This document shows, piece after piece, positions 31,648 to 64,000 of a stretch of DNA of 64,000 nucleotides. This DNA is from an uncultured Acidobacteriota bacterium (GTDB taxonomy: Bacteria > Acidobacteriota > Thermoanaerobaculia > Multivoradales > JBCCEF01). The stretch covers positions 2,938,496-3,002,495 of the forward strand of contig CAVSQV010000003.1 in assembly GCA_963730155.1 (NCBI GenBank). The letters run 5' to 3'. The notes beneath the pieces were generated by a model. The model searched no databases. It had not been told where the DNA came from and was given only the letters and a program-made list of their open reading frames with translations. The first letter of the stretch is position 1; the number at the start of each line of letters is the position of its first letter. Position numbers and translations under genes: made by a program.

Positions 31648-31664
31648 GGTGGGATCCTCCGGTG

Positions 31665-33533: not shown

Positions 33534-33781
33534 CTCCCCGGCGGGGGCGTCTACTCCAAGGCGCGTGCCAGGCCCCCCGGGGAGCGGCCCCCCGAGCCGA
33601 AAGTCCCTGACCTCATCAGGCTTCGGCGAGCGAGACCCGTGGCCCGGCGCGTCGCGAACCGGTCGGCCGCGAGTGTCGATAACTCTACACTCTGTCGGAA
33701 TGCGGGCACCTGGCGGCTGTCCCGATCCACCGACGGGCGCCGCACTGGGGGGATGAGGAAGACCTGCACAGGAGGACCGCC

Positions 33782-36533: not shown

Positions 36534-36629
36534 GGTCCCCCCCCTTTTCCTCTTACCGTCTGACTCGGGTATCTCCCTTGAGGGTAGCATCGCACTGCTA
36601 GAGTCGGGGAACGTCGAGAGGGGCTACTC

Positions 36630-36896
36630 ATGAAAGAAGCAGTCCTGACCTACCCTGACGGCCTTCCTCAGTCCCTCAAGCTCTCGGACCGGGAGTTCGC
36701 CGAGGAGCTGCGCTTCCTCGCAGCGGCCAAGCTCTTCGAGCTGGGCCGGCTGTCTTCGGGTAAGGCCGCCGAGCTCGCGGATCTCGATCGGCTCACCTTC
36801 CTGGGCCGCCTGGCTTCGATCGGCGTCGCGGCGATCAACCTGCGAGAGGAAGAGGTGACCGCCGAGCTGGACATGGCCCGCGGTCTGGCTGGATGA
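36630..36896 (+). CDS. UPF0175-family antitoxin
   Basis: 88 aa. The sequence MKEAVLTYPDGLPQSLKLSDREFAEELRFLAAAKLFELGRLSSGKAAELADLDRLTFLGRLASIGVAA matches the UPF0175 pattern (..EEF..E.R.L.A.KLYE.G.LS.G.AAELAG..R.EFL..L...GV...). RBS gagagggg. Its stop overlaps the next gene's start (ATGA). Confidence 0.8.
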   Translation: MKEAVLTYPDGLPQSLKLSDREFAEELRFLAAAKLFELGRLSSGKAAELADLDRLTFLGRLASIGVAAINLREEEVTAELDMARGLAG

Positions 36897-37387
36897 GCCC
36901 GTGGATCGTCGACGCCGGACCCTTCGTCTTCCTCGCGAAGCTTGACCGTCTGTCCGTCCTGAGAGGACCCGCTCCATCGGTCCTGATGCCGGCGGCAGCG
37001 GCCCGCGAGGTCCTGGCGCACCCGGATCGCGCGACACAGGCGCTCCAGCGTGCGTCGAGCGACTGGCTGGAGATCGTCGAGGTCGAAGATCGCCTCGCCG
37101 CCGGCCTCCTCCTCCCCTCCCTTGGACCCGGCGAAGCCGAGGTGATCGCCCTGGCGAGGGAACGATCTGCGACGACCGTGGTCCTGGACGACCTCGATGC
37201 CCGGCGATTCGCCCGCCGGGTCGGCCTTCGACCGGTCGGCACGCTCGGCCTGCTGCTCGCCGCCCGCTTGCGCAACGAGCTGCCGTCGCTCCGCGCCGAG
37301 ATCCTCCGACTGGAGGAGGCGGGGTTCTACGCCAGCGACGCGCTGACCGCTGCCGTTCTGGAGGCGGCCGGCGAAGCGCCGCCGTGA
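36893..37387 (+). CDS. DUF3368-family PIN-like nuclease (toxin partner of UPF0175)
   Basis: 164 aa. The sequence MSPWIVDAGPFVFLAKLDRLSVL...GPGEAEVIALARERSATTVVLDDLDARRFARRVGLRPVGTLGLLLAA has the DUF3368 pattern (VVDTSPLI.LA.IGRLDLL ... GEAEAIALA.E...DLLLIDD..AR..A...GL...GTLG.L). Confidence 0.75.
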   Translation: MSPWIVDAGPFVFLAKLDRLSVLRGPAPSVLMPAAAAREVLAHPDRATQALQRASSDWLEIVEVEDRLAAGLLLPSLGPGEAEVIALARERSATTVVLDDLDARRFARRVGLRPVGTLGLLLAARLRNELPSLRAEILRLEEAGFYASDALTAAVLEAAGEAPP

Positions 37388-37388
37388 C

Positions 37389-39477
<2,089 letters not shown>

Positions 39478-39602
39478 CGGACCGACGATGTTACTCCGCG
39501 GCCGCGGCGGCGCTCCGGAGGCGGCGCTTCGAGTTCGACCGCAAGCCGCGCATAGCGGGCCGGCCGCGGGAGGCCTATCCTCTCGGGTCAGGAGGCAGGG
39601 CG

Positions 39603-47277: not shown

Positions 47278-49608
47278 ATGAACCACGAGATCTCGCACCG
47301 AGCACCGCTCCGCCCGAGGACACCGTCCCCGGGAGCAGCGCGCAACCGCCGCGCGCGCCGCACGCCGGGCGGTTGGCCGCTCGCGGCCGCGGTCGCCGCC
47401 GCGCTGGCGGCGGTGGCGGTCGCCGCTCTCGGGGCGCCGCCGGGCTGCGACGCCGCCGGCTGGAGCCACTGGCGCGGGCCGGCGCGCAACGGCACCTCGC
47501 CCGAGACCGGGCTGGTGTCGAGCTGGTCGACGGAGGGCGAGAACCTGGTCTGGCGCCAGGACTTCGTCGGCCGCTCGACGCCGGTCGTCTTTGACGGCCG
47601 GGTCTGCGCCAACGGCCGGGTCGGCGAGGGGATCTCGCGCCAGGAGATGGTCGCCTGCTTCGACGCCGGCACCGGCAAGAAGCTCTGGGAGCAGCGCTGG
47701 ACGTCTACCACACGACGGTCCCGTTCAACCGCGTGGGCTGGGCCAGCCTGGTGGGCGACCCCGAGACCGGCAACCTCTACGCCCACGGCGTCGGGGGGCT
47801 CTTCTTCTGCTTCGACCGCGCGACGGCAAGGTCGTCTGGTCGCGCGCGCTGACCGAGGAGTTCGGCTTCATCGGGCTTCGGCGGCCGCACCCACACGCCG
47901 ATGATCGACGAGGACCGGCTGATCCTCTCCTTCGTCGAGCAACTGGGGCGAGCAGGCGCCGCCGCGCACCCGCACGTTCGCCTTCGACAAGCGACGGGCG
48001 AGCTGCTCTGGGTCTCGATCCCCGGCGGCCCCGATGGCCGACAACAACTCGCAGCGACGCCGCGGTGGCGGTGGTCAACGGCCAGCGTCTGCTCATCGAG
48101 GGCAACGCCGACGGCTGGATCTATGCCATCAAGGCGCGCACCGGCGAGAAGGTCTGGAGCTTCCAGCTCACGCAAGGGCGGGATCAACATCACGGTCGCG
48201 GTCGACGGCAACACCGTCTACGCCTCCCACAGCGAGGAGAACGTCGACGCGCCGATCATGGGCCGGGTGGTGGCGATCGACGCGACCGGCACGGGCGACG
48301 TGACCAAGACCCACGAGCGGTGGCGGGCGACCGCTGGGCGTCGGGCTTCTCCTCGCCGCGTTCGCACGACGGCGACGCTCTACGTCGTCGACAACTGGCG
48401 CCAACCTCTTCGCCCTCGACGCCAAGACCGGCCGCGAGCTCTGGAAGCACAAGCTGGGGACGGTGGGCAAGGGCTCGCCGGTGCTGGGCCGACGGCAAGC
48501 TCTACGTGACCGAGGTCAACGGCCGCTTCCACATCCTGAGGCCGGCCGCGACGGCGTCCGGCCGCTCGACATCGAGAAGCTGACCATGCCCGGGAGCGGC
48601 CGCTACGCCGAGATCTACGGCTCGCCGGCGATCGCCTACGGCCGGATCTACTTCACGACCGAGGCGGGGCTCTACTGCCTGGGCGACCAGAGCCAGCCGT
48701 TCAAGGTGACCAAGGACGAGCCGGTCGAGCCCGCCGGCGAGGAGCCCGGCCGCCCGGCGCCGCGGCCGCCACGCTGCTCCAGGTGGTCCCGGCCGAGGTC
48801 CTGATCGCGCCGGGCGAGACGGTCCGCTTCCCGGTCAAGGCCTTCGACGCCCAGGGCCGCCCGCTGGCGGCCCCGCGACGCCACCTGGGCGCTCGAGGGT
48901 CTGGCCGGCACCGCTCGCCGACGGCCGCTTCACCCCGGCGGCCGGCGCACCCGCCAGGCCGGCAAGGTGGCGGCGAAGGTCGGCGGGCTGGAGCGCGACG
49001 GCGCGGGTGCGGGTCAACCCGCCGCTGCCCTGGAGCGACGACTTCGAGGCGGCGTCGAGGCGCGGCAAGACCGCCCTGGTGGATCGGCGCGGCTGCCAAG
49101 TTCCCGGTCGCCGAAGTCGGACGGCGGCAAGGTGCTGTCGAAGCCGCCGCTGCCGCGGGCCGACCGCTCCGACGTCCTGCTCGGGCCGCCGGCGCTCTCC
49201 AACTACACCATCCAGGCCGACCTGCTGGGCACCGCGCAAGGGGCGGAAGCGCCCCGACCTCGGGCTGATCAACAGCGGCTACACCTGGACCTGATGGGCG
49301 CCCACCAGAAGATCCAGCTCCGCTCCTGGCCTCGGAGCTGCGCTGGAGAAGTCGGTGCCGTTCCCGTGGGAGCCGGACGTCTGGTACACGATGAAGTTCC
49401 GGGTCGACCAGCAGGGGGACAAGGCGCTCGTGCGCGGCAAGGTGTGGCGGCGCGGCGAGCCCGAGCCGCGAGGAGTGGACGATCACGGCCGAAGACCCGC
49501 AGCCGGTCCGCCAGGGCAGCCCCGGGCATCTACGGCTACTCGGCGGCGGAGATCTACTACGACAACCTGCAGGTGACGGTGAACTCCGAGAAGGATGCGA
49601 AGGAATGA
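47278..49608 (+). pseudogene. BamB-like PQQ-repeat beta-propeller protein with a C-terminal beta-sandwich-like domain, heavily frameshifted
   Basis: The signal and N-terminus are MNHEISHRAPLRPRTPSPGAARNRRARRTPGGWPLAAAVAAALAAVAVAALG...WSHWRGPARNGTSPETGL. Propeller blades and the C-terminal domain (..PFPWEPDVWYTMKFRVDQQGDKALVRGKVWRRGEPEP...GIYGYSAAEIYYDNLQVTVN) are spread across at least 7 overlapping track ORFs in three frames. Confidence 0.6.
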
Positions 49609-51230
49609 CGTCCGATCGATCTCCGCCGCCGCGGTGCTGGCGCTGGCGGCGCTGCCGGTGACCGTCGCTGCCGAGGAACCTGCGATCGCCATGTTCGGCG
49701 GGGACCCGAGCCGCCAGACCGCTGAGGCGCCGCAAGGCGCCGAGGCGGCCTCGCGGGAGGCGCATCCGCCATGTTCGGCGGCGGCCCTCGCGCAACATGG
49801 CCTCCGCCGAGAAGGGCCTGCCCGCGAAGTGGGACCCCGAGACCGGCGCCAACATGCTCGTGGATGCCGCCGCTCGGCTCGCAGAGCCTACGGCGGCCCG
49901 GTCGTCGCCGGCGGCAAGGTCTTCGTCGGCACCAACAACGAAGGCGCCGCGCAACCCGAAGCTCGACCGGCGACCGCGGCAGTCCTGATGTGCTTCGACG
50001 CCAACGACCGGCAAGTTCCTCTGGCAGTCGGCGCACGACAAGCTCCCGGCCGGCCGCGTCAACGACTGGCCGCTCGAGGGCATCTGCTCCGGCCCCGGCG
50101 TCGAGGGCGACCGCCTCTACTACGTCAGCAACCGCTGCGAGGTCGTCTGCGCCGACGCCGAGGGCTTCCGCGACGGCAAGAACGACGGCCCGTTGACCGA
50201 CGAGACCGACGACGACCGAGACCGACGAGGACGTGGTCTGGAAGCTCGACATGATCGGCGAGCTGGACGTCTTCCCGCACAACCTGGCCGCCGGCTCCCC
50301 GCTGATCGTCGGCGACCTGCTGTTCATCGTCACCGCCAACGGCGTCGACGAGGGGCACATCAACATCCCCGCGCCGCACGCGCCGAGCTTCATCGCGGTC
50401 GACAAGAAGACCGGCAAGCTGCTGTGGGAGGACAACTCGCCGCCGGCGAGAACATCCTGCACGGCCAGTGGTCGAACCCGGCCTACGCGCGTGATCAAGC
50501 GGCAAGCCGCAGGTGATCTTCCCCGGCGGCGACGGCTGGCTCTACTCCTTCGAGCCCAAGACCGGCAAGCTGCTCTGGAAGTTCGACTGCAACCCGAAGG
50601 ACGCCGTGTACGAGCTCGGCGGCACGCGGCACCCGCAACGACTTCATCGCCACGCCGGTCGTCTACGACGACAAGGTCTACATCGGCGTCGGCCAGGACC
50701 CCGAGCACGGCGAGGGCGTCGGCCACCTGTGGTGCATCGACGCCGGCGACGGCACGGCGACGTCACCGGCAAGGCGCGTGGTCTGGCACCGCGGCGGCGA
50801 GGACTTCCACCGCACGCTCTCGACCGTGGCGATCGCCGGACGGCATCGTCTACGCCTCCGACCTCTCGGGCCACCTCTACTGCCTCGACGCCAAGACCGG
50901 CCAGCACTTCTGGACGCTACGACGCCTTCGCCGCCATCTGGGGCTCGCCCTTCGTCGCCGACGGCAAGGTCTACCTCGGCGACGAGGACGGCGACGTCGT
51001 GGTGCTGCGGGCGGGCAAGAAGAAGGAGCTCCTGCACGAGATCAACCTGGGCAGCTCGGTCTACACCACGCCGGTGGCCACGGACGGGGTCCTCTACATC
51101 ATGACCCGCGCGACGCTCTTCGCGATCGAAGGAGGGCGCGACGTGGCAGCCGGCGGCGCCGCCGGCGCCGCCGGCCGAGGCGCCGGCGCGGTGATCACCG
51201 AGGCCGGCCGACCGGCGCCCGCCCCGGCGG
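49595..51230 (+). pseudogene. Second PQQ-repeat beta-propeller protein, frameshifted
   Basis: The signal peptide is MRRNDVRSISAAAVLALAALPVTVAAEEP. Propeller segments (..[54 protein letters not shown].. ; ..[36 protein letters not shown].. ; ..[81 protein letters not shown]) alternate between frames. Confidence 0.55.
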
Positions 51231-52332
51231 CCGCGGACGCGAGCGCCCTCGCCGACCGCGTCGCCGAGGCGCGCCGCGGCTCGACGCCCACGTGCGCGAG
51301 ACGTGGCCTGGCACTTCTCGACCCGAGACCGGCAGCCCGTTCTGGCTGGAGCGGGCGCGAGGCGCTCGGCTTCGATCCGCGCGAAGGAGGTCCACGGCTA
51401 CGACGACCTCGAAGCTCTTCGGCCACTTCGAGGACTCCTGGCTGCGCGGCGGTCCGGTGCGCCGCTGGATGCCCCGGGGGCTCGCCGGCCGGCCGGTCTA
51501 CGTCTTCGAGACCGGCGGCACGACCGGGGTGCCGAAGTCGCGGGTCAACATCGAGGACTTCCAGATCGACTACGAGCGAGTTCAGCGACGCGCTGCCCGA
51601 CGAGGGCTTCCCGCCCGGGCGCCGACTGGCTGATGCTCGGGCCGACCGGCCCGCGCCGGCTGCGGCTGGCGGTCGAGCACCTGGCGCAGCACCGCGGCGG
51701 CATCTGCTTCCACGTCGACCTCGACCCGCGCTGGGTCAACCGGCTGATCAAGGACGGCCGCCTCCGCGAGCTGGAGGAGTACAAGGCCCACGTCATCGAG
51801 CCAGGGGCTGACCGTGCTCCGGGCGCACGAGATCCGCTGCCTGTTCACGACGCCGAAGCTGCTGGACGCGCTCTGCGAGCGCAGGCTCGTCTCGCCAAGC
51901 TGGGCATCCGCGGCATCTTCTGCGGCGGCACCGAGATGAACGCCGCAGTTCCACCGCTTCGCCCGCGAGGAGCTGGTGCCGGGGATCGAGTTCGTGCCGA
52001 CCTACGGCAACACGCTGATGGGGCTCGCCTGCCCGAAGCCGTTCGACCCGGCGGCGCCCGACTACACGATCACCTACTACCCGCCCGCACCGCGCGCGGT
52101 CTTCGAGCTGGTCGACCCCGACGACCCGGAGCGCGCCGGTCGAGCTACGGCGAGACCGGGCGGGTGATGCTGACCACGCTCACCCGCGAGCTTCTTCATG
52201 CCGCGCTTCCTCGGAGCGCGACGAGGGCGAGCGGGCCGAGCCGATCGAGCGCTATCCCGTGGGACGGCGTGACGCAACCTGCGGCTCTTCTCGCGGCTGG
52301 CCGAGATTCGGTGGTCGGTCGGGGTGTATTAG
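51230..52332 (+). pseudogene. LuxE/PaaK-family adenylate-forming enzyme (acyl-protein synthetase or phenylacetate-CoA-ligase-like), frameshifted
   Basis: Segments in three frames: ..[54 protein letters not shown] (adenylation P-loop-like TGGTTG-PK); ..[74 protein letters not shown]; ..QFHRFAREELVPGIEFVPTYGNTLMGLACPKPFDPAAPDYTITYYPPAPRAVFELVDPDDPER. Confidence 0.55.
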
Positions 52333-52343
52333 ATGACGGTCCG

Positions 52344-53856
52344 ATGCTTCCCCTCCTGCTCCGCGGCGGACGCCCCTACCGCAGCCTGGAGGCGCGACCT
52401 CCTGCGCGACGCCGCGACGGGCGAGCCGGTGGCCGAGGTCGCCAGGCCGAACCCGGGGCTCATCGCGAAGCGATCTGCCCGAGCGATCGGCGCGGCGCGC
52501 CGGACGCTCGCCGCGCTCCCCGCCGCCGAGCTGCTCGCGATCTGCCGCCGGGCGGCCCGCCTCTTCGCCGAGGCCGAGCTGCCGCCGGCGACGGCGTCCA
52601 GGGCTCGGACGACTACGTCCGCCAGCTCTCGGCGACCTCCGGCCTGCCGGAGACCCTCTGCCGGCTCAACATGGAGAAGATCCGCACCGTGCTCGCCGGC
52701 ATGGAGGCGGTGCTCGCCGGGCTGACGCGGGGGCTCGACCTCTCGGTCCTCGACTCCGGCTGGGCGGAGGACGGACGGCCGGATCGTCTCCTTCCGCGCC
52801 GCAGACCGACGCCCTGGGCGCGGTCCTGCCCAGCAACTCGCCGGGCGTCCACAACCTCTGGCTGCCGGCGCCGGCGCTCAAGATCCCGGTGGCGCTCAAG
52901 CCCGGGCGCGAGGAGCCGTGGACGCCGTTCCGGATCGGCCAGGCGCTGATCGCCGCCGGCCTGCCCGCCCGGGCGCTCTCGGCTTCTACCCGGCCGACCA
53001 CGGCGGGCGCCGCCGAGATCCTGCTGCGCTGCGGCCGGTCGCTGCTCTTCGGCGACGAGTCCACGGTGCGCCCCTGGGAAGGCGATCCGCGGGTGCAGAT
53101 CCACGGCCCGGGCTGGAGCAAGGTGCTCTTCGGCGAGGACCAGGCTCGCCCACTGGGAGAGCCATCTCGACCTCCTCGTGCCGGTCGATCGCCGACAACG
53201 GCGGCCGCTCGTGCCTCAACGCCTCGGGCGTCTGGGTGCCGAAGCCGGCGGCGGCGGCAACGGCCTCGGCCGCAGGCTCGCCGAGGCGCTCGCGCGCCGG
53301 CTGGCCGCGATCGAGGCGCTGCCGCTCGACCATCCCGAGGCGCGGCTCGCCGCGTTCCCGCGATCCCGCAGGCGGCGCATCAGATCTCCGACACTGATCG
53401 ACCGCCAGCTCCGCCTCCGCGGCGCCGTCGATCTGACCGCGGCGATCCGCGGCCGCGCCGGGTGGCCGAGGCCGGCGGCTGCACGTTCCTGCTGCCGACG
53501 CTCATCTGGTGCGAGGACCCCGACCACCCGCTCGCCAACACCGAGCTGCTGTTCCCCTTCGCCTCGCGTCGTCGAGGTCCGCAGGACGAGATGCTCGCGC
53601 GGATCGGCCCGACGCTCGTCGGCCACCGCGCTCACCGACGGACCCCGCCTTCGAGCGCGAGCTGCTCGACTGCCCGCGCGATCGACCGGCTGAACCTGGG
53701 GCCGGTCCCGGCGCGGTGCCGACCTCCCGCGTGTCCTGGGACCAGCCGCACGAGGGGAACCTCTTCGAGCACCTCTACCGCCACCGCGCGCTCGGCGGGC
53801 CGGCGCTGACGGCGGGTGCGGCACGGCCGGCGGTTGCCGCGGGAGCGCCGGCATGA
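52344..53856 (+). pseudogene. LuxC-like acyl-CoA reductase (aldehyde-dehydrogenase-fold), frameshifted
   Basis: Segments: ..DYVRQLSATSGLPETLCRLNMEKIRTVLAGMEAVLAGLTRGLDLSVLDSGWAEDGR ; ..LGAVLPSNSPGVHNLWLPAPALKIPVALKPGREEPWTPFRIGQALIAAGLPARALSFYPADHGG ; ..AEILLRCGRSLLFGDESTVRPWEGDPRVQIHGPGWSKVLFGED ; ..SIADNGGRSCLNASGVWVP ; C-terminus ..NLGPVPTSRVSWDQPHEGNLFEHLYRHRALGGPA. Its stop overlaps the next gene's ATG (ATGA). Confidence 0.5.
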
Positions 53857-55121
53857 GCGCCGTCGCCCGGCTCACCTCCGGTCCGACCGGCGGGCACGAG
53901 CCGGCCTCGCTCCAGGCGGGGATGACCCCTTCCGGCACCGCGCGCTGGCGCGCCCGGTGGGCGCGATCGAGGTCTCGTTCGGCGCCGGCACGGCGGCCTC
54001 GCTCGGGGAGCTGGTGCGCGCCGTCGCACCGGACGCCTCCCGCGCGCTGGTGGTCACCGATCCCGGGGTGCGCGCCGCCGGCCACGCCGAGGCCGCCGCT
54101 CGCCGCGCTCGCCGAGGCCGGCTCGAGACCGCGATGTTCGACGGCGTCGGCGAGAACCCGACCACCGAGCGAGGTCGACGCCGGCGCCGCCTTCGCCGCG
54201 CCGTTCGCGCCCGACCTGCGTCGTCGGCCTCGGCGGCGGCAGCGCGATCGACTGCGCCAAGGGGATCAACTTCCTGCTCACCAACGGCGGCCGGATGGAG
54301 GACTACCGGGGCGCGGCAAGGCGCGGCTGCCGATGCTGCCGTCGATCGGCGTGCCGACCACCGCCGGCACCGGCAGCGAGGCCCAGTCCTACGCCCTGAT
54401 CTCGCACGCCGAGGACCCACCGAGAAGATGGCCTGCGGCGACGACAAGGCGCGCTTCCGCGCGGTGGTGCTCGACCCGCGCGCTCGCCGCGACCGCGCCG
54501 CGCCGGGTCGCGGCCGCGGCGGGGATCGACGCGGTGTCGCACGCGGTCGAGAGCCACGGTGACCACGGCGCGGCAACCCGGTGTCGCGGATGCTCTCGCG
54601 CGAGGCCTGGCGCCTGCTCGACGGCGCGCTGCCCGCGGCGCTCGCCTCGCGCGGCGAGGACCTCGGCGAGGATCTCGACGCGATCGGCCGCATGCTCTTG
54701 GGCGCCCACCTCGCCGGCGCCGCGATCGAGCACTCGATGCTCGGCGCCGCCCACGCCTGCGCCAATCCGCTGACCGCCCGCTTCGGCGTCGACGCACGGC
54801 GTGGCGGTCGGCCTGATGCTCCCCCACGTCGTCCGCTTCAACGCCGCCGTCGCGGCCGAGGGCTACGCCGAGCTGGCCGACGCGGCCGGCCTCGACGCCG
54901 GCGCCGAAGGCGCCGGCCCGGCGGCCGCGCTGGCGCGCCGGATCGAGGGGCTGCGCGCCGCCGCCGGCCTCCCCGGCCGGCTCGCCGAGGTCGGCGTTTC
55001 GGCGCGCGCGCTGGCGGAGCTGGCCGCCGACGCAGCCACGCCAGTGGACGCGGCAGGTTCAACCCGCGGCCGCGTCTCCGAGTGCCGACTTCCTGAGGCT
55101 GCTAGTGAATCCGCGCTCTAG
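53853..55121 (+). pseudogene. Iron-containing (group III) alcohol dehydrogenase, frameshifted
   Basis: Segments: ..[60 protein letters not shown] ; ..[31 protein letters not shown] ; ..[31 protein letters not shown] ; ..AAGIDAVSHAVESH ; C-terminus ..AHACANPLTARFGVDA..GVAVGLMLPHVVRFNA. Confidence 0.65.
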
Positions 55122-55129
55122 CTGCCTCG

Positions 55130-56249
55130 CCGCCGCTGCTCCTCACGCTCGCCGCCGCCCGCCGCGGCCGACTGGACCGCGCTTCCGCGGCGATGCCCGG
55201 ACATCGCCGGCCGCGCCGACTGCCGCGCTGCCGGCCGAAGCCCGAGCTGAAGCTGGACGCTTCGAGGCCGAAGCGGGCTTCGTCGTCGACCGCGGCGATC
55301 GTCGGACGGCACGGTCTACGCCGCCTCGCTCGACGGCCAGCTCTACGCCCTCGACCTCGCGACCGGCAAGCAGCGCTGGAAGCTACGAGGCCGGCGACGA
55401 GATCAAGTCGTCGCCCGGTCGTGTTGGCAGGACGGTGGCGGACGGTCTACTTCGGCGACGAGACGGGCAAGCTCCACGCCGTCGACGCCGCGACCGGCAA
55501 GGCGCGCTGGATCTTCACCGCCGACGGCCGGGATCATCTCCTCGGCCAACTTCGCGCCGGCGACTGCATCCTGTTCGGCTCCTACGACAACCGCCTCTAC
55601 TGCCTGCGGCCGGAGAGCGGCAAGGCCGTCTGGAAGGTCGAGACCGACGGCTACGTCCACGGCACGCCGGCGATCGCCGGCGGCGACACGCTGGTCGCCG
55701 GCTGCGACGGCTTCCTGCGCCGTGGTGCGCCTGGCCGACGGCAAGGAGGTCGCGACAGGTCGAGCTCGGCGGCTACGCCGCGGCGAGCCCGGCGGTCGCC
55801 GGCGGCCGCGCCTTCGTCGGCACCTTCGAGAACCAGGTCCTGGCGGTCGACCTCGAGACGGGCGCGCTCGCCTGGCGCTACGAGCACCCGGTGCGCAAGT
55901 TCCCGTTCTACGCCTCGGCGGCGATCGCGGCGAGGGGACGGGTCGCTGGAGGACGGTGCGTGGTCATCGTCGGCGGCCGCGACAAGATGGTCCACGCCCT
56001 CGACGCCGCCGACGGCGCCGAGCGCTGGACCTGGTCCGCCGGCGCGCGCGGTCGACGCCTCGCCGGTGGTCGCCGGCGGCCGGGTGCTGGCGGCGACCAC
56101 AGGGCGGGGTGCTCGTCGCGCTCGACCTCGCGACCGGCGAGCCGTCGTGGCGCTTCGACGCCGGCGCCCCGTTCGACGCCTCGCCGGCGGTCGCCGCCGG
56201 CCGGCTGGTGATCGGCGACGCGGACGGCATCCTCTACTGTTTCGGCTAG
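55130..56249 (+). pseudogene. Third PQQ-repeat beta-propeller protein (short, ~370 aa), frameshifted
   Basis: Segments: ..VYAASLDGQLYALDLATGKQRWK ; ..TVYFGDETGKLHAVDAATGKARWIFTADGRDHLLGQ..ILFGSYDNRLYCLRPESGKAVWKVETDGYVHGTPAIAGGDTLVAGCDGFLR ; ..AFVGTFENQVLAVDLETGALAWRYEHP..VVIVGGRDKMVHALDAADGAERWTW ; end ..VLVALDLATGEPSWRFDAGAPFDASPAVAAGRLVIGDADGILYCFG. Confidence 0.55.
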
Positions 56250-56339
56250 GGGCCCAACCACGCGGCCGCGAACCCCGTACCTCACACCGAGAACCCACCA
56301 CCCGGCGACGCGCCCGAACCACGACCCGCGAAAGGCCTC

Positions 56340-57738
56340 ATGAGCCGTACCGACACCGCGACCCTCGAACCGCACGCCGCCGCCCCCTCCCCGAGCCGGC
56401 CACCGCCGGCCAGAGCTCCGAGGACACCGAGGTCGGCAGCGTCTTCGTCTCCAACTACCCGCCGTACTCGGCGTGGAGCCCGGAGGCGGTGGCCGCGGTC
56501 GAGCGCCGGCTCGCCGCGCCGGCCCCGGATCCGGCGACGCCGCTCGGCCTCTACCTCCACATCCCGTTCTGCCGCAAGCGCTGCAAGTTCTGCTACTTCC
56601 GCGTCTACACCGACAAGAACTCGGGCGAGATCGGCCGCTACCTCGACGCCCTGGCGCGCGAGGTCGAGCTCTGGCGCCGAGCGGCCCGCGATCGCCGGCC
56701 GGCCGCTCCGCTTCGTCTACTTCGGCGGCGGCACGCCGTCTTACATCAGCGTCCGCCAGCTCGAGGAGCTGTTCGGCCGCGTGCGCGCCGCGTTCTCCTG
56801 GGACCGGCGCCGAGGAGGTCACCTTCGAGTGCGAGCCGGGGACCCTCACCGAGTCCAAGCTCGAGGCGATCCGCGAGCATCGGCGTCACCCGCCTGTCGC
56901 TCGGCATCGAGAGCTTCGACGACGAGATCCTGCGCGAGAACGGCCGCGCCCACGTCTCGACGGAGATCTACCGCGTGCCTGCCGTGGATCCGCGAGCTCG
57001 GCTTCGACCAGCTCAACGTCGACCTGATCGCCGGCATGGTCGGCGAGACCTGGGAGACCTGGAAGGCGACCGTCGAGCGGACGCTCGAGGTCGAGCCCGA
57101 CAGCGTCACCGTCTATCAGATGGAGCTGCCGTTCAACGACCGTCTACTCGAAGGACGTCCTGGCCGGGAGCTTCGAGCGCCCGCTCGCCACCTGGGCCGA
57201 CAAGCGCGCCTGGCACGACTAGGCCTTCGAGCGCTTCGAGGCGGCCGGCTACGAGGTGTCGAGCGCCTACACCGTGGTGAAGAGGAAGCCCGGCGACGCC
57301 GGCAGCCGCTTCGTCTACCGCGACGCGGTCTGGCACGGCAGCGACCTGCTGGGCACCGGGGTCGCCTCGTTCTCCCACTTCCGCGGCGTCCACTTCCAGA
57401 ACGAAGCGGGCTGGGTTCCGTATCTGGACTCCGTGGAAGCCGGCCGCCTGCCTCTAGCCCGCGCCTTCGAGGCCGCCCCCGAGGACCTGCTGCGCCGTGA
57501 GCTGATCCTCCAGATGAAGCTCGGCCGGGTCGAGGCGGCGCCGTTCGCGGAGAAGTTCGGCGTCGACGTGCTGGAGCGCTTCGCCCCCGCCCTCGAGCGG
57601 CTCGAGCGCCGCGGCATGCTCGCGCTCGACCGGACCGGCGGCGGCCGCATCGAGCTGTCTCGCGACGGGCTGCTGCAGGTCGACACCCTGCTGCCCGAGC
57701 TGTACGACGAGCGCTACCGCAAGGGGCGCTACACCTAG
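56340..57738 (+). pseudogene. HemN/HemW-like radical SAM enzyme (oxygen-independent coproporphyrinogen-III oxidase family), with frameshifts and an in-frame TAG
   Basis: The radical SAM CX3CX2C motif is LYLHIPFCRKRCKFCYF. Further segments: ..RFVYFGGGTPSYISVRQLEELFGRVRAAFSWDR ; ..[47 protein letters not shown] ; ..LNVDLIAGMVGETWETWKATVERTLEVEPDSVTVYQMELPFN ; ..WADKRAWHD-TAG-AFERFEAAGYEVSSAYTVV (in-frame TAG at 57220-57222) ; C-terminus ..LERFAPALERLERRGMLALDRTGGGRIELSRDGLLQVDTLLPELY. Confidence 0.7.
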
Positions 57739-57811
57739 GAGCCTCGCTGCCGAGATTTCCGCGCACCGGGCCCGAACCGCAACCGACCGATCTCCCCAGC
57801 CGAAGGAGAGG

Positions 57812-59116
57812 ATGATGACCGCGATCCGCCCAGCCCTCGCCTCCGCCAGCTTCAAGCCCGCCGCCCGCGCTCCGTTCGTCGCTGCCGCTGTCCTTCTCGC
57901 CGCCGCCGCGCTGGCGCTGCCGGCCGCCGCGCCGGCCGCCGACTGGCCGATGTTCCGCGGCCCGGGCGCCTCCGGCGTCTCCCCCGAGACCGGCCTCCTC
58001 GCCGCCTGGCCCGCGGCCGGCCCGTCCGAGGTCTGGCGCGTGCCGCTCGGCGAGGGCTACTCCGGGCTCTCGGTGGTCGGCGGCCGGATGTACACGCTCT
58101 ACGCCGACGCCCAGGACGAGCTGGTGGTCGCGCTCGACGCCGCCACCGGCAAGGAGCTGTGGCGCTACCGGCTCGACGCCAAGTACTTCGACGGCCAGGG
58201 CAACGGCCCGCGCTCGACGCCGACGGTCGAGGGCGGCACCGTCTTCGCCTACGGCGCGCGCGCCAAGCTCGCCGCGCTCGACGCCGAGAGCGGCCGGCTC
58301 TTGTGGAGCCAGGACCTGAAGAAGTCGTTCGGCGCCCGCCCGCCGCAGTGGGCGGTCTCGACCTCGCCGCGGGTCTGGGGCGACCTCCTCTTGGTCGACG
58401 CCGGCGGCCGCGAGGGCGCCTCGATCGTCGCCCTCGACAAGCGCAGCGGCGTGGTCAAGTGGACCGCCGGCACCGACGTCCAGGGCTACTCGACGCCGCT
58501 GGTGATCGCGGTCGGCGGCAAGGACGTCGCGGTCTTCTTCACCGGCAGCAAGATCGTCGGCCTCGATCCCGCCGGCGGCGAGATCCACTGGTCGCTCGGC
58601 TGGGAGACCAGCTACGACGTCAACGCCGCGACGCCGGTCTTCGTGCCGCCCGACCGGGTCTTCCTCTCCTCCGGCTACGGCGTCGGCGCGGTGATGCTGG
58701 AGGTGACCGCCAAGGGGGGCAAGACCGCGGCGACCGAGGTCTGGCGCAGCAAGGGGATGAAGAACCAGTTCTCGACCTCGGTCTACCACGCCGGCCACCT
58801 CTACGGCTTCGACGACTCGATCCTGAAGTGCCTCGACGCCGCGACCGGCGAGGAGAAGTGGAAGGCGCGCGGCTTCGGCCACGGCTCGCTGATGCTCGCC
58901 GACGGCCGGCTCTACGTCCTCTCCGACCGCGGCACGCTGGCGCTGGTCGAGGCGACGGCGGAGAGCTACAAGGAGGTCGCCCGCTTCGAGCCCCTCGACG
59001 GAAAATGCTGGACGATGCCGACGGTCGCCGGCGGCAAGCTCTTCGTGCGCAACGAGAAGGTGGTGGCGGCCTACGATGTCGCTGGGGGTGGGGAGGTGGA
59101 CCGTGCGTCGCGTTGA
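57812..59116 (+). CDS. BamB-like PQQ-repeat beta-propeller protein (intact)
   Basis: 434 aa. The signal peptide is MMTAIRPALASASFKPAARAPFVAAAVLLAAAALALPAAAPAA. The N-terminal motif is DWPMFRGPGASGVSPETGLLAAWP. Repeated blades follow (..GGRMYTLYADAQDELVVALDAATGKELWR.. ; ..VFAYGARAKLAALDAESGRLLWS.. ; ..HLYGFDDSILKCLDAATGEEKWK..DGRLYVLSDRGTLALVEA..KLFVRNEKVVAAYDV). Confidence 0.8.
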   Translation: MMTAIRPALASASFKPAARAPFVAAAVLLAAAALALPAAAPAADWPMFRGPGASGVSPETGLLAAWPAAGPSEVWRVPLGEGYSGLSVVGGRMYTLYADAQDELVVALDAATGKELWRYRLDAKYFDGQGNGPRSTPTVEGGTVFAYGARAKLAALDAESGRLLWSQDLKKSFGARPPQWAVSTSPRVWGDLLLVDAGGREGASIVALDKRSGVVKWTAGTDVQGYSTPLVIAVGGKDVAVFFTGSKIVGLDPAGGEIHWSLGWETSYDVNAATPVFVPPDRVFLSSGYGVGAVMLEVTAKGGKTAATEVWRSKGMKNQFSTSVYHAGHLYGFDDSILKCLDAATGEEKWKARGFGHGSLMLADGRLYVLSDRGTLALVEATAESYKEVARFEPLDGKCWTMPTVAGGKLFVRNEKVVAAYDVAGGGEVDRASR

Positions 59117-61301
59117 GACCCTGGCCTTCGGTTTCGGACTGCTGCTCTTCGCCGCCGCGCCCACGCTCGCCCAGGACGCGGAACCGCAGGAGGCGCCCGC
59201 GGCGACGCAGCCGGCCGGCCCCGAGGACGAGGCGGCCGATCCGACCTACCTCTTCGGCGACGAGGTCGAGGTGAAGGGCGAGCTGCCCTGGATCCCGTCG
59301 TCGAACACCGTCGCCGCCAAGCTCCCGCTGCCACTGCGCGAGACCCCGGCGAGCGTCTCGGTGATCCCGGGGCCGCTCCTCGCCGAGCAGGGGGCGAGGA
59401 TCCTCGGCGACGCGCTCGAGAACGTCTCCGGGCTCGGCGTCCACACCGGCAGCGGGGTGTTCGACTTCTTCGTCGTCCGCGGCCTCGACTCGGTGTCCTC
59501 CGGGCTGATTCTTTCCGACGGCGCACCCGAGCTCGAGACCACCTTCTACCAGCTCTACAACGTCGAGCGCGTCGAGGTCTTCAAGGGGCCGACCTCGTTC
59601 CTCTACGGCGGCGGCCCGCTCGCCGGCACCGTCAACCTGGTGCGCAAGCAGCCGTCGCCCGGCACCTTCGGCCGGGTCACCGCCGGCGCCGGCAGCTTCG
59701 ACACCTACGAGGCGACCGCGGACGTCAACGCCGGCTCGAAGGACGGCGCGCTGTCGTTCCGGGTCAACGGCCTCTGGCGGCAGTCCGACGGCTTCCGCGA
59801 CGGCCGCGAGAGCGACCTCGCGGCGCTCAACCCGGCGCTGACCTTCCGGCCGAGCGAGAGCTGGTCGCTCAACCTGAACGTCGAGCGGATCGACGCCGAG
59901 TACCTCTCGGACAACGGCCTGCCGCTCTTGTTCGACCAGCAGGGCGCGGCGACCATCGTCCCGGACGTGCCGCGCGAGCGCTCCTACCAGTCGCCGTTCG
60001 ACCTCTCCGACCAGGCGATCGACCGCGCCCAGCTCGACTGGGAGGCGATCGTGTCGCCGAACCTCCTGGTGCGCGACAAGGCCTACTGGCGGAGCATGGA
60101 GTGGGACTCGAAGGCGACCGCGTTCAGCGGCGTCGTGCCGATCCCGGTCCTCGGCGACCAGGTGATCCGCAACCTCCTGATGCTCGACGACGAGCAGGAG
60201 TTCCTGGGCAACCAGCTCGAGGCGATCGCGAGCCTGGGCGACGACTTCGTAACCCACGAGATCCTGTTCGGCGTCGAGGCGGTCCGCTACACCGACCGCT
60301 TCGGCTTCGATGTCGCCTTCCTCCCCCTGATCGGCCTCGACGACCCGGTCGAGACCGCGCCCGGCTCGATCGACCTCCTGCCGCGGATCCCCGGGCAGGC
60401 GCTCGGGGCCGACGCCGAGGTGACGACCATCGCCCCCTACGTGGTCGACCAGATCCGGATCGGCGAGCGCTTCACCGTCCTCGCCGGCGCGCGCTGGGAC
60501 ACGGTCGACTTCGAGGACGCCTTGGCCGGCACCCGGCGCGACGACGACGAGCTGTCGCCGATGCTCGGCGCGGTCTGGGCGCCGCGGGCGGAGACCTCGA
60601 TCTATGCCAACTACGCCGAAGCGTTCTCGCCGCCCTCGACCTTCACCCCGGCCGAGGACCGGGTGCCCGAGGACAGCGAACAGGCCGAGGCCGGGGTCAA
60701 GACCGCCCTCTTCGACGGCCGCGCCGAGGCGACCCTGGCGGCGTTCCGGATCGACCGCACCGGGGTCGCGATCCCCGATGCGACCGGCGTCGTACGCCAG
60801 ATCGGCGACCAGCGCTCGCAGGGGCTCGAGGCCGAGCTGCGCGGCACGGTCGGCGGCGACCGGCCGGCCTGGGTCTCGCGCCTGCGCTACCTGTTCGCCT
60901 ATGCCTACACCGACAGCGAGCTGACCGAGTACCGCGAGCAGCAGTTCCTCCTGGTGCCGCCGTTCGTGGTGGTGCGCGACTTCTCGGGCAACGACGCCCC
61001 GTTCACCCCGGCGCACACAGCGAGCCTCTGGCTCTCGACCACCCTGCCGCACGACGTCGGGCTCGGCGCCGGCGCGCGCTGGGTCTCCGACCAGTACATC
61101 GACGAGGACAACGCGTTCGCGATCGACGGCTACGCCACGCTCTCGGCGTCGGCGACCTGGGGCCGCGAACTCTGGCGCCTGCGCCTCAACCTCGACAACC
61201 TGACCGGCGAGGAGTACCTGACCCGCGGCTTCGGCGGCTTCTCGGTGATCCCGGCGCCGGGGTTCGCGGCGACGGCGCGGGTCGAGGTGGGGCTGTTTTG
61301 A
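59076..61301 (+). CDS. TonB-dependent receptor (siderophore or small-substrate type)
   Basis: 741 aa. Signal peptide and plug (..VSVIPGPLLAEQGARILGDALENVSGLGVHTG..VFKGPTSFLYGGGPLAGTVNLVRKQP). The barrel ends ..ARVEVGLF. An alternative GTG start at 59103 would reduce the overlap with the upstream gene to 14 nt. Confidence 0.85.
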   Translation: MSLGVGRWTVRRVETLAFGFGLLLFAAAPTLAQDAEPQEAPAATQPAGPEDEAADPTYLFGDEVEVKGELPWIPSSNTVAAKLPLPLRETPASVSVIPGPLLAEQGARILGDALENVSGLGVHTGSGVFDFFVVRGLDSVSSGLILSDGAPELETTFYQLYNVERVEVFKGPTSFLYGGGPLAGTVNLVRKQPSPGTFGRVTAGAGSFDTYEATADVNAGSKDGALSFRVNGLWRQSDGFRDGRESDLAALNPALTFRPSESWSLNLNVERIDAEYLSDNGLPLLFDQQGAATIVPDVPRERSYQSPFDLSDQAIDRAQLDWEAIVSPNLLVRDKAYWRSMEWDSKATAFSGVVPIPVLGDQVIRNLLMLDDEQEFLGNQLEAIASLGDDFVTHEILFGVEAVRYTDRFGFDVAFLPLIGLDDPVETAPGSIDLLPRIPGQALGADAEVTTIAPYVVDQIRIGERFTVLAGARWDTVDFEDALAGTRRDDDELSPMLGAVWAPRAETSIYANYAEAFSPPSTFTPAEDRVPEDSEQAEAGVKTALFDGRAEATLAAFRIDRTGVAIPDATGVVRQIGDQRSQGLEAELRGTVGGDRPAWVSRLRYLFAYAYTDSELTEYREQQFLLVPPFVVVRDFSGNDAPFTPAHTASLWLSTTLPHDVGLGAGARWVSDQYIDEDNAFAIDGYATLSASATWGRELWRLRLNLDNLTGEEYLTRGFGGFSVIPAPGFAATARVEVGLF

Positions 61302-62578
61302 GCGATCGCACCTGGGACGCGGTGGTGATCGGCGGCGGCCCGGCCGGCGCCACCGCGGCGACCCTGGTCGCCCTCCGCGGCCGCTCGGTGCTCCTGCTCG
61401 AGAAGGCGCCCGGGCCGCAGCTCAAGGTCGGTGAGTCGCTGATGCCGGCGACCTACTGGACCCTCGAGCGGCTGGGCATGCTCGAACGGATGCGGGCGAG
61501 CGACTTCCCGCGCAAGTACAGCGTCCAGTTCTACACCCGCGGCGGCCGCGCCTCGGCGCCGTTCTACTTCTTCGAGACCGACCCCGAGGAGTCCTCCCAG
61601 ACCTGGCAGGTGCTGCGGAGCGACTTCGACCGCCTGCTGCTCGAGAACGCCGCCGAGAAGGGGGTCGAGGTGCGCTTCGGCTCGGCGGTCGAGGCGGTGC
61701 GCTTCGAGCGCGGGGAGGAAGGCGAGGAGCCCCGCGCGGTCGGCGTGCGCGCCGCGATCGACGGCGGCGAGGTTCGCGACGTCGACGCCCGGGTGGTGAT
61801 CGACGCCAGCGGCCAGCGGGCGCTGATCTCCCGCTCGATGGGGCTCAAGGAGGACGACCCGCGGCTCCGCCACGCCGCCTACTGGAGCCACTTCAAGGGC
61901 GCCCGCCGCGATCCCGGGATCGACGAGGGGGCGACCCTGGTGCTGCGCACCGAGAGCCCGCGCAACTGGTTCTGGTTCATCCCGCTCCCGGGCGAGCGGA
62001 CCTCGATCGGGGTGGTCGGGCCGGTCGAGGACCTGGTTGACGGCGGCGACCCGGAGGCGGTCTTCGCGCGCGAGCTGGCGCGCTGCCCGGCGCTCGCCGA
62101 GCGGATGGCCGGGGCCGAGATGCTGATGCCGGTGCGGGTCGCCCGCGACTACTCGTACCTGAGCAGCCGGGTCGGCGGCAACGGCTGGGTGCTCGCCGGC
62201 GACGCCTTCGGCTTCCTCGACCCGCTCTACTCCTCGGGGGTGTTCCTGGCCCTGGAGTCGGGGGCGATGGCCGCCGACGCGGTGATCGACGCGCTCGACG
62301 CCGGCGACCTCTCGGCCGCGCGCCTCAACGCCCACGGCGAGCGCTACGCCGACGGCATCCGCGCGATCCGCCGGCTGGTCTACGCCTTCTACGACCCGGA
62401 GTTCAGCTTCGGCCGCTTCCTCGAGCGCTTCCCGGACCAGCGCCCCGGCATCGTCGACCTCCTGACCGGCAACGTCTTCCGCAAGCCCTACGAGGAGACC
62501 CTGGCGGCGCTCGACCTCTTCGCCGCCGAGCGCAGCGCCGCGGCGGTCGAGACCGCGGAGGCGGAGGCGCGCCGGTGA
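61298..62578 (+). CDS. Flavin-dependent halogenase-family protein (FAD-binding, WxWxIP motif)
   Basis: TTG start overlapping the TonB-receptor stop (TTGA). GxGxxG is WDAVVIGGGPAGATAA. The conserved Lys context is LKVGESLMP. The WxWxIP motif is SPRNWFWFIPLPGE. The second FAD motif is ..GWVLAGDAFGFLDPLYSSGV. Confidence 0.75.
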   Translation: MSDRTWDAVVIGGGPAGATAATLVALRGRSVLLLEKAPGPQLKVGESLMPATYWTLERLGMLERMRASDFPRKYSVQFYTRGGRASAPFYFFETDPEESSQTWQVLRSDFDRLLLENAAEKGVEVRFGSAVEAVRFERGEEGEEPRAVGVRAAIDGGEVRDVDARVVIDASGQRALISRSMGLKEDDPRLRHAAYWSHFKGARRDPGIDEGATLVLRTESPRNWFWFIPLPGERTSIGVVGPVEDLVDGGDPEAVFARELARCPALAERMAGAEMLMPVRVARDYSYLSSRVGGNGWVLAGDAFGFLDPLYSSGVFLALESGAMAADAVIDALDAGDLSAARLNAHGERYADGIRAIRRLVYAFYDPEFSFGRFLERFPDQRPGIVDLLTGNVFRKPYEETLAALDLFAAERSAAAVETAEAEARR

Positions 62579-62838
62579 GGGCGGCGCGGCAGGCGGCCGC
62601 GGCGGCGACCGCGGACGCGACGGCGCCGGCCCGGCACGGCGCGGCCTGGTTCTACCTCGGGCTCGGGCTGCTCTTCGCCCTTCATCACGACTTCTGGTTC
62701 TGGGACCGGCCGCGGCTGGTGCTCGGGCTCCCCGCCGGGCTCCTCTACCACGTCCTCTACTGCGTCGCCGCGGCGGGGCTGATGGCGTTCGCGGTGCGCC
62801 GCGCCTGGCCGCCGCCGGGCCTCGGCGACGGCGGCTGA
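62575..62838 (+). CDS. DUF3311-like small membrane protein (accessory to the sodium:solute symporter)
   Basis: GTG start overlapping the halogenase stop (GTGA). Two TM helices (WFYLGLGLLFALHHDFWFWDRPRLVLGLPAGLLYHVLYCVAAAGLMAFAV). Its position directly upstream of the symporter is typical. Confidence 0.6.
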   Translation: MRAARQAAAAATADATAPARHGAAWFYLGLGLLFALHHDFWFWDRPRLVLGLPAGLLYHVLYCVAAAGLMAFAVRRAWPPPGLGDGG

Positions 62839-62866: not shown

Positions 62867-64000
62867 GTGATCGAGGCCGTGGTCGGGGTCTATCTCGCGC
62901 TGGTGCTGGCGATCGGCTTCCTCGCCCGGCGCCGGCTCGCGGCCACCGGCGACGACTACTTCACCGCCAGCCGCACGATCGGGCCGGTGATCCTGCTCGC
63001 GACGCTCTTCGGCACCCACATGACCGCGTTCAGCCTGCTCGGCGCCTCGGGCGAGGCCTACCACCGCGGCGTCGGCGTCTTCAGCCTGATGGCGTCGTCC
63101 TCCGCCCTGGTGGTGCCGGCGGTCTTCTACTTCGTCGCCCCGCGCGTCTGGACGGTGTGCCGGCGCGGCGGCTTCCTGACCCAGGTCGAGCTGGTGGCCG
63201 CGCGCTGGGGCAGCCCGGCGCTGGCGCTGGCGGTGGGCGGGGCGCTGGTCGCGCTCCTCCTCCCCTACCTGGTGATCGGGATGATGGGCGGCGGCATCAC
63301 GATCACCGAGATCACCCGCGGCCGGGTGCCGGAGTGGGCCGGGGGGCTGGTGATCGCCGGCGTGGTGTTCGCCTACGTCGCCGCCGGCGGCGTGCGCGGC
63401 ACCTCGTGGGTCAACACCTTCCAGACCGTGGTCTTCGTCGTCCTCGGCGCGGTCACCGCCGGCGTGGTGATCGTGAAAGCCGGCGGCCTCGACGTGCTGG
63501 CCTCGCGGGTCGCCCCCGCGCTCCTGGTCCACGGCGACCGCGTGCCGCCGCTCGAGCTGCTCTCCTACGCGCTGATCCCGCTCTCGGCCGGCACCTTCCC
63601 GCACATCTTCACCCACTGGCTGAGCGCGCGCGGCCCCGAGACCTTCAAGCTGCCGATCGTCGCCTACCCGCTGTGCCTCGCCGCGGTGTGGCTGCCGAGC
63701 GTCCTGGTCGGCGTGCTGGCGAGCGCCGACCTCCCCGGCCTCGAGGGCCCGGCCGCCAACTCGGTGCTGATCCGGGCGATCGACCTCCACGCTCCCGGCG
63801 TCCTCACGGGCCTCCTGGCCGCCGGCATCTTCGCCGCGGTGATGAACTCGCTCGACAGCCAGGCCCTGGCGCTGTCGTCGATGGTCACCCGCGGCCTCGG
63901 AGCCCGCTCTCCCGCGGCCACGGCCTCCGCGGCCGCCGGCCGTCGCCAGCTCTTCGCCGGGCGCCTGTTCGTCGCCGCCGTCCTGGTCCTCACCTACGCC
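62867..64000 (+). CDS. Sodium:solute symporter (SSF) family transporter, 3'-truncated by the window end
   Basis: RBS ggcgggggga then GTG. The protein begins VIEAVVGVYLALVLAIGFLARRRLAATGDDYFTASRTIGPVILLATLFGTHMTAFSLLGASGEAY. The ORF is open to the window end at 64000. It is not in the track because it has no stop inside the window. Confidence 0.75.
   Translation, partial: MIEAVVGVYLALVLAIGFLARRRLAATGDDYFTASRTIGPVILLATLFGTHMTAFSLLGASGEAYHRGVGVFSLMASSSALVVPAVFYFVAPRVWTVCRRGGFLTQVELVAARWGSPALALAVGGALVALLLPYLVIGMMGGGITITEITRGRVPEWAGGLVIAGVVFAYVAAGGVRGTSWVNTFQTVVFVVLGAVTAGVVIVKAGGLDVLASRVAPALLVHGDRVPPLELLSYALIPLSAGTFPHIFTHWLSARGPETFKLPIVAYPLCLAAVWLPSVLVGVLASADLPGLEGPAANSVLIRAIDLHAPGVLTGLLAAGIFAAVMNSLDSQALALSSMVTRGLGARSPAATASAAAGRRQLFAGRLFVAAVLVLTYA

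Follow-up and report, generated by a model that had tools for sequence, protein, structure and literature searches.

Flavin-dependent halogenases have been described from several pathways, and those closest to the enzyme reported here, a 426-amino-acid (aa) protein encoded near the 3' end of a 64,000-nucleotide stretch of contig CAVSQV010000003.1 from an uncultured Acidobacteriota bacterium (hereafter the window), each resemble it in some respects and depart from it in others. The tryptophan halogenases PrnA and RebH have the chemistry, the GxGxxG motif, the catalytic Lys and the WxWxIP motif in common with it, but they are ~100 aa longer and contain a tryptophan-binding module. The 'variant B' enzymes CndH (512 aa) and CmlS (591 aa) align with it at GESL, at the Lys and at WxWxIP, but carry an extra C-terminal domain. 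The pyrrolyl-carrier-protein halogenases PltA, Mpy16 and Bmp2 share its fold and hallmark residues (231-266 bits, template modelling (TM) scores of 0.83-0.87), but they depend on a prolyl-AMP ligase, a dehydrogenase and a carrier protein, and for the last of these no gene was found in the cluster of the present enzyme. Best by sequence, by profile and by fold is FasV, which is likewise compact (~410 aa) and in which GxGxxG, GES, the Lys and WxWxIP all align. We take FasV to be the halogenase of the Streptomyces fasamycin aromatic-polyketide pathway, acting on the free polyketide; in contrast, no polyketide synthase accompanies the present gene, and the identity to FasV is only about 36-45%. 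Our main new finding is that this halogenase gene and a gene for a HemN-like radical S-adenosylmethionine (SAM) protein form a pair that is kept across four phyla, joined by fixed tailoring, glycosylation and export genes in all but Poribacteria.

The locus was compared by tblastn with two relatives of complete-genome scale (L001 and L002) and with 52 loci from GTDB species. In this comparison the halogenase proved to be a core member of a same-strand, operon-like and uncharacterised cluster of ~14 genes, which is found in Acidobacteriota (Thermoanaerobaculia type), Planctomycetota and Verrucomicrobiota, the last of these including the cultured carriers Haloferula rosea (locus L018) and Luteolibacter marinus (locus L021, halogenase orthologue at 10001-11251). 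The cluster encodes a beta-propeller protein, a DUF3311 protein with a sodium:solute symporter family (SSF) transporter, an EhpF-like adenylase (~370 aa), an EhpG-like aldehyde dehydrogenase (~470 aa), an iron-containing alcohol dehydrogenase (Fe-ADH), a Beta-prop_ACSF4-type propeller, the HemN-like radical SAM protein, the halogenase, a GT4 glycosyltransferase, a YbgC-like thioesterase, a small membrane protein, a PaaK-like ligase, an ATP-binding cassette (ABC) ATPase and an FtsX permease of ~1,100 aa. Members seen repeatedly in different phyla are the EhpF/EhpG-like pair, Fe-ADH, the GT4 enzyme, the thioesterase and the FtsX exporter. The radical SAM gene lies upstream of the halogenase on the same strand in 38 of the 42 loci with enough flanking sequence, and the two genes are the core of the cluster. 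In Poribacteria, which are sponge symbionts, the pair stands alone and the rest of the cluster is absent (L012, 7961-10786; L014, 8400-11227); the neighbours of the pair there are PD40/dockerin beta-propeller proteins and a sulfatase. The DUF3311-symporter pair is a true cluster member too, but variable in place: Acidobacteriota and Planctomycetota carry it downstream of the halogenase, Verrucomicrobiota at the 5' end. A gene of 181 aa was also seen, always between the radical SAM gene and the halogenase, in L021 (9459-10004) and in 31 other Verrucomicrobiota and Planctomycetota loci. It had no Pfam, NCBIfam or PDB match whatever, for which reason chorismate lyase was dropped as a candidate for it, and it was not detected in the Thermoanaerobaculia-type loci, where a beta-propeller gene and a TonB receptor gene occupy that position.

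The radical SAM partner scored below every equivalog cutoff, reaching 174.6 bits on HemN (TIGR00538; cutoff 325), 174 on STM4012 (380) and 168 on HutW (400), and its best PDB matches were HemN and the class C methyltransferase NocN. Its cluster motif reads CxxxCxxCYF or CxxxCxxCYY in 38/38 orthologues, so that the fourth Cys of the HemN motif (CxxxCxxCxC), which HemN requires, is not there; by score and by motif, the protein does not qualify as a HemN coproporphyrinogen dehydrogenase. Along its full length the EhpF-like adenylase is homologous to EhpF (PDB 3L2K/3HGU, 3.5e-49), the EhpG-like gene follows directly 3' of it (51277-53814 in the window for the two together; 419-2946 in L001), and both the TGGTTGxPK motif of the adenylase and the catalytic Cys of the aldehyde dehydrogenase are invariant across orthologues. 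This order, adenylase and then an aldehyde dehydrogenase-family gene, is that of EhpF-EhpG in the phenazine clusters for D-alanylgriseoluteic acid, although no phenazine core genes are present here. In 2010 Bera and colleagues reportedly proposed that EhpF and EhpG turn an aryl carboxylate into an aldehyde through the adenylate. A fatty acid reductase of the LuxC/LuxE type was also considered for the two genes and rejected, since no such Pfam matches appeared and EhpF is the clear homologue. A search of the L021 and L001 cluster genes, not exhaustive for small open reading frames (ORFs), turned up no PP-binding carrier protein, and the cluster yielded no polyketide synthase, non-ribosomal peptide synthetase or flavin reductase.

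The first-pass annotation of this DNA had correctly placed the halogenase between a TonB receptor and a DUF3311/symporter pair, and had put its emphasis on these neighbours. The receptor contains Plug and TonB_dep_Rec_b-barrel domains and reached 247.3 bits on the siderophore-receptor model TIGR01783 (cutoff 223.5). However, the receptor and a second propeller gene, prop2, stand between the radical SAM gene and the halogenase in 5/6 Acidobacteriota loci and in 0/36 others, prop2 being co-inserted with the receptor in the Thermoanaerobaculia-type loci. The receptor is an insertion specific to Thermoanaerobaculia-type Acidobacteriota and its adjacency is incidental; the conserved partner is the radical SAM gene. 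The receptor ORF as called overlaps the preceding beta-propeller ORF by 41 nucleotides (59076-59116), and its true start may lie further downstream. On the other side of the halogenase, the small ORF scored 29.2 bits on DUF3311 against a cutoff of 30, and its orthologue in L055, a 12.8-kb short-read contig of a close relative (93.6% nucleotide identity), is recorded as DUF3311; an SSF transporter gene comes next, and in L055 the genes for a GT4 glycosyltransferase and a large FtsX-type permease lie beyond it. We considered the symporter as a halide importer of the NIS type and set this aside, since it had no PDB match at E<0.001 and only generic SSS, PanF or PutP similarity.

Our literature searches for this cluster architecture returned nothing relevant but one preprint, which describes a 'Halo_AMP' pseudoclass of uncharacterised clusters in sponge metagenomes, defined by a halogenase and an AMP-binding enzyme (bioRxiv 10.64898/2026.08.03.742642). 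Genes for radical SAM, PQQ-like, glycosyltransferase, thioesterase, TonB and glycolipid-exporter-like proteins recur in these clusters, some of the hosts belong to Acidobacteriota or Poribacteria, and the halogenases of the clusters resemble Bmp2. The focal family CC A of that study differs from the present cluster in containing P450s, of which we found none (bioRxiv 10.64898/2026.08.03.742642). Compared by the description of its gene content rather than by sequences, the present cluster looks like one of the Halo_AMP kind.

Profile and structure searches were then what placed the halogenase itself. The Pfam family Trp_halogenase (PF04820) matched with 80.3 bits against a cutoff of 21 (E=1.8e-22), and the top NCBIfam model was CmlS (NF033113) with 179.4 bits, far below its equivalog cutoff of 900 bits. 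The ten best PDB sequence matches were FasV (8ZOP, 'Structure of FasV in complex with FAD', released 2025; 2.5e-65), CndH, 3NIX, PltA, Mpy16, CmlS, Bmp2 (two entries), ChlB4 and RadH, all of them halogenases except the uncharacterised 3NIX; a literature search for '8ZOP' found nothing. With a family profile built from 39 sequences, FasV scored 311 bits, PltA 266, CndH 265, Mpy16 261, ChlB4 238, Bmp2 231 and CmlS 230, followed at lower values by RadH (179), CtcP (126), PltM (99) and a geranylgeranyl reductase (PDB 3OZ2; 82). Fourteen halogenase-family sequences headed this PDB list, and neither tryptophan halogenases nor the monooxygenase QhpG were among its best 60 matches. An AlphaFold2 model of the protein (predicted local distance difference test 93.2, predicted TM score 0.92) was compared with the PDB by Foldseek, where 8ZOP came first (TM 0.83/0.87, 36% identity) and ranks 1-39 were all of the halogenase family (TM 0.70-0.87). 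The profile and fold searches place the protein among halogenases and not among non-halogenating flavin adenine dinucleotide (FAD) monooxygenases. The first monooxygenase stood at rank 40 (TM 0.70); the tryptophan-halogenase-like Xcc4156 followed at rank 50 (TM 0.66/0.56), and a geranylgeranyl reductase gave TM 0.66. We hold it as very likely that the protein belongs to the flavin-dependent halogenase family, as had been proposed for it, given these rankings and the hallmark residues described below. Subclass placement rests on the ranked profile and fold scores, and by these the protein is a compact enzyme within the phenol/pyrrole ('variant B'-like) branch, in the class of ~410-450 aa. At 426 aa it falls outside the tryptophan subclass, which is marked by ~530 aa, a C-terminal tryptophan-binding module and close similarity. 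The tryptophan halogenases, to which it had earlier been compared, give way as comparators to FasV, PltA, CndH, Mpy16 and Bmp2.

The hallmark residues were followed through 172 aligned orthologues, of which 120 are database proteins and 52 come from genome loci (identity down to ~40%). The GxGxxG motif anticipated by the first-pass annotation is present as GGGPAG at aa 12-17, with G12 and G14 kept in 171/172 sequences and G17 in 168/172, and WxWxIP is present as WFWFIP at aa 224-229, aligned to the WxWxIP of FasV, CndH, 3NIX and PltA. Further features are a GES segment with E46, a catalytic-Lys equivalent at K73, and GDAFGFLDPLYSSG at aa 301-314; K73, E46, W224, W226, I228, P229, D302 and D308 are invariant in all 172 orthologues. 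In the tryptophan halogenases RebH and PrnA the catalytic Lys is K79, ~30 residues downstream of GVGEATIP. The GESL segment of the present protein is the counterpart of this flavin-proximal GVGEATIP, which in the tryptophan halogenases is without the catalytic Lys. It had been suggested from the DNA that the catalytic Lys is the one within LKVGESLMP, that is K43, but this choice failed: in HMMER alignments the K43 position is H in FasV, Q in CndH, V in 3NIX and H in PltA, and it is His in 43/52 genome orthologues. K73 (FPRKYSVQF), on the other hand, aligns with the Lys of FasV (fqrKygg), CndH (fpiKrgg), 3NIX (fqqKfga) and PltA (fpkKfga), and we identify K73, not K43, as the catalytic-Lys equivalent. 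The catalytic hallmark set is intact, with WxWxIP conserved as foreseen and the Lys conserved at another position than foreseen.

The WxWxIP motif had been taken to separate halogenases from monooxygenases. It is indeed intact and invariant here, but it is not an absolute discriminator, because the monooxygenase QhpG, whose closest structure is the halogenase CmlS, keeps the two Trp in its channel (PMC7876137). The protein is like QhpG, LodB and GoxB in its halogenase-like fold and in the two Trp lining the re-face channel (PMC7876137); these enzymes differ in hydroxylating protein Trp and in being without the catalytic Lys. Such kinship makes it conceivable, if unlikely, that the protein is a halogenase-fold flavin monooxygenase or hydroxylase in the style of QhpG, LodB and GoxB, which acts without halide on an aromatic intermediate of the cluster or on a protein or peptide residue. 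Sub-threshold NCBIfam scores for QhpG (NF049967; 130.5 bits), LodB (80) and GoxB (80) point in this direction, as does the fact that class C radical SAM enzymes such as NocN often act on peptides. All three scores, however, remain under their cutoffs (240 bits for QhpG), QhpG is outside the best 60 profile matches that the 14 halogenase-family sequences lead, and the halogenase-defining Lys is invariant, while no Lys is among the channel residues named for QhpG (Arg70, Val72 and Trp74; PMC7876137). Nor is a radical SAM/SPASM-protease-QhpC context present around the halogenase. The invariant Lys is a stronger argument for a halogenase than WxWxIP, which alone would not prove it.

The sub-threshold scores include another flavoprotein type, that of geranylgeranyl reductase (TIGR02032, 131.1 bits against a cutoff of 158.8; MenJ, 61 bits), and the cluster has features suited to a lipid, namely GT4, the thioesterase and the FtsX exporter. 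On this ground the protein might reduce the side chain of a quinone, the tail of an isoprenoid or lipid, or a linear tetrapyrrole that a ChuW-like radical SAM enzyme makes from heme taken up by the TonB receptor. The radical SAM protein reaches 168 bits on the model for ChuW/HutW, and in the Thermoanaerobaculia lineage the receptor gene is adjacent. We consider this highly improbable, as the reductase lags far behind the halogenases (82 against 311 profile bits, TM 0.66 against 0.83-0.87), the halogenase-specific Lys and WxWxIP are invariant, and the receptor is absent from 36/36 non-acidobacterial loci and scores 247 bits on the siderophore model against 87 on the heme-receptor model. Anaerobic heme degradation of the ChuW type tied to the TonB receptor was likewise rejected as the main explanation of the locus, since the receptor is lineage-specific and of siderophore type, the radical SAM protein is below the equivalog cutoffs and the other cluster genes do not fit.

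The halogenase gene itself (Table 1) was described in the first-pass annotation as intact, unlike many genes upstream, and this was borne out: the ORF contains no internal stop, the database gene call P0001 has the same length and sequence (100% of the length identical), and the region 57.8-64 kb is clean in frame while upstream genes are split over several frames. Its TTG start (61298) overlaps the TGA stop of the receptor gene (61299-61301) and is preceded ~10 nucleotides upstream by a Shine-Dalgarno-like GAGGTG. Orthologues start at the same place, a few residues ahead of GxGxxG, which makes the TTG start credible. At the other end the TGA stop (62576-62578) shares bases with the GTG from which the DUF3311 ORF starts (62575). 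These 4-nucleotide overlaps, seen as had been reported, suggest that the halogenase is translationally coupled with both flanking genes, the overlaps being what was observed and the coupling what they imply. A scan for promoters and terminators gave counts within chance, and terminator-like sites were not above chance within 51-64 kb. The ratio of nonsynonymous to synonymous substitution rates (dN/dS) of the halogenase against L055 was 0.25 and therefore indicates purifying selection on the gene. Among 1.84 billion representatives at 50% identity, 836 matched the halogenase at E<=1e-30 and 5,930 at E<=1e-10; relatives at 55-65% identity number in the thousands, mostly from Thermoanaerobaculia, and the family is common.

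Table 1. Coordinates of the halogenase and of the neighbouring cluster genes in the window
Feature	Position	Strand	Basis or remark
EhpF-like truncated ANL adenylating enzyme, without C-terminal domain	51277-52329	+	
EhpG-like aldehyde dehydrogenase-family protein, split over three frames	52356-53814	+	
Iron-containing alcohol dehydrogenase (Fe-ADH), in frameshift-dense zone	53957-55072	+	36% identity to L001 orthologue
Beta-propeller 'prop1' (Beta-prop_ACSF4/PQQ_2 type), split over three frames	55224-56246	+	
HemN-like (class C-type) radical SAM gene, CRKRCKFCYF cluster motif, without fourth Cys	56393-57738	+	Conserved halogenase partner
Secreted BamB/PQQ-like beta-propeller 'prop2', signal-peptide-like N-terminus	57812-59116	+	Locus comparison
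TonB-dependent receptor, siderophore-receptor subfamily (Plug + beta-barrel)	59076-61301	+	Pfam, NCBIfam, locus comparison
Flavin-dependent halogenase-family protein, 426 aa	61298-62578	+	ORF calls, profile, PDB, fold and orthologue alignment
Small DUF3311-like membrane protein, usual symporter companion	62575-62838	+	GTG start overlaps halogenase stop
Sodium:solute symporter family (SSF) transporter, runs past window end	62867-64000	+	

The genes upstream of this clean region raised the question of the state of the cluster in this genome. In the window no single frame covers the EhpG-like gene, prop1 or the radical SAM gene, each of which is spread over several, and a scan of the phase of G+C content at third codon positions (GC3) delimited two frameshift-dense zones, at 26-39.5 kb and 47.3-57.8 kb, with 57.8-64 kb clean. 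Within the dense zones (26000-39500 and 47300-57800) the GC3 phase switches every few hundred bases, and elsewhere it runs in long coherent phases. Further BamB/PQQ-like beta-propeller fragments, also frameshifted, lie at 47383-51097, upstream of the EhpF-like gene, and are the counterpart of the propeller gene that other phyla carry at the 5' end of their cluster. Taken at face value, such damage, with frameshifts in five upstream cluster genes, could mean that the halogenase is a still-intact remnant of a decaying pathway, now without function. The radical SAM gene carries five uncompensated +1 insertions against L055 (at 56675, 56806, 56879, 56975 and 57143) and no deletions, three frames are needed to read either the EhpG-like gene or prop1, and the upstream genes diverge more from their orthologues than the downstream genes do. 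Nevertheless, each of the five indels inserts a single base and the dense zones form patches, both of which are typical of local long-read consensus error, and the L055 radical SAM gene is in one intact frame. In the propeller, receptor, halogenase and symporter genes, indels against L055 are compensated within a few bases or come in multiples of three, and dN/dS is 0.25-0.40 for these four. We find a dying remnant very unlikely, and we regard local consensus error of a long-read assembly as a likelier cause of the frameshifts than genome-wide pseudogenisation, because the indels are all +1 and the zones patchy.

Far from this cluster, at 3026-4630 (+), the window encodes a vanadium-dependent haloperoxidase-family protein (PAP2 superfamily), as the first-pass annotation had noted. 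The match is at family level, the best PDB hit being the Zobellia iodoperoxidase 4CIT (6e-33), with which the SGHS and RxxxGGxH motif regions align. The gene is 57 kb from the halogenase, and nothing ties it to the halogenase cluster.

Returning to the halogenase, we think it probable that the protein acts in vivo as a cytoplasmic, two-component, FADH2-dependent halogenase of the phenol/pyrrole class, within a pathway of the kind outlined below. By established halogenase chemistry, a separate flavin reductase would supply FADH2, whose reaction with O2 would give the flavin C4a-hydroperoxide, and attack of chloride or bromide on this intermediate would yield hypohalous acid. The GES segment would bring E46 next to the flavin, and the two Trp of WxWxIP would shield the flavin from the organic substrate and so prevent direct oxygenation, while the hypohalous acid would tunnel to K73, which may direct electrophilic halogenation of an electron-rich carbon. 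Judging from the gene context, the substrate would be a small molecule, probably aromatic and derived from a carboxylate, and presumably free rather than carrier-bound, because the cluster encodes no carrier protein. The EhpF/EhpG-like pair and Fe-ADH may activate and reduce the carboxylate of this substrate, the radical SAM enzyme and the halogenase may modify it, and the GT4 enzyme may glycosylate the product before the ABC/FtsX pump exports it. The TonB receptor and the extra beta-propeller would be add-ons of the lineage, possibly for uptake of the product or a precursor.

Several observations weigh against halogenation by this protein in such a pathway. Halogenases need O2, while the class Thermoanaerobaculia takes its name from a strict anaerobe, and the radical SAM partner is itself oxygen-sensitive. 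The orthologue group has no member of known activity, substrate or product, and neither a flavin reductase nor a halide-related gene was seen in the cluster. The score on CmlS, the best model, is 179 against a cutoff of 900, and the protein has the sub-threshold scores on the non-halogenating QhpG (130/240) and geranylgeranyl reductase (131/159) models; its fold and WxW motif are common to the monooxygenase QhpG (PMC7876137). Finally, the upstream half of the cluster is frameshifted in the window, and if these frameshifts are true, the pathway is dead in this genome.

A bolder account would see in the radical SAM-halogenase pair, alone in Poribacteria and embedded in a cluster elsewhere, an ancient two-enzyme module that makes a new class of aromatic metabolites, halogenated, or transiently halogenated and then rearranged by the radical SAM enzyme, and glycosylated. 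Because the module is so widely inherited, its product would be more like an envelope component, a cofactor or a metallophore than a strain-specific antibiotic, and in Thermoanaerobaculia it would be recaptured via the TonB receptor. We offer this as speculation that is quite unlikely to hold in full.

Since predicted halogenases are common, the gene alone is routine and not in itself surprising. The cluster around the conserved pair is a reasonable lead for a new halogenated metabolite, and the question is experimentally tractable because cultured carriers, Luteolibacter marinus and Haloferula rosea, exist. A product would give chemistry to a type of cluster that has so far only been catalogued from sponge metagenomes in the 2026 preprint, and the halogenase could add a compact enzyme for free substrates to the biocatalysis toolbox.

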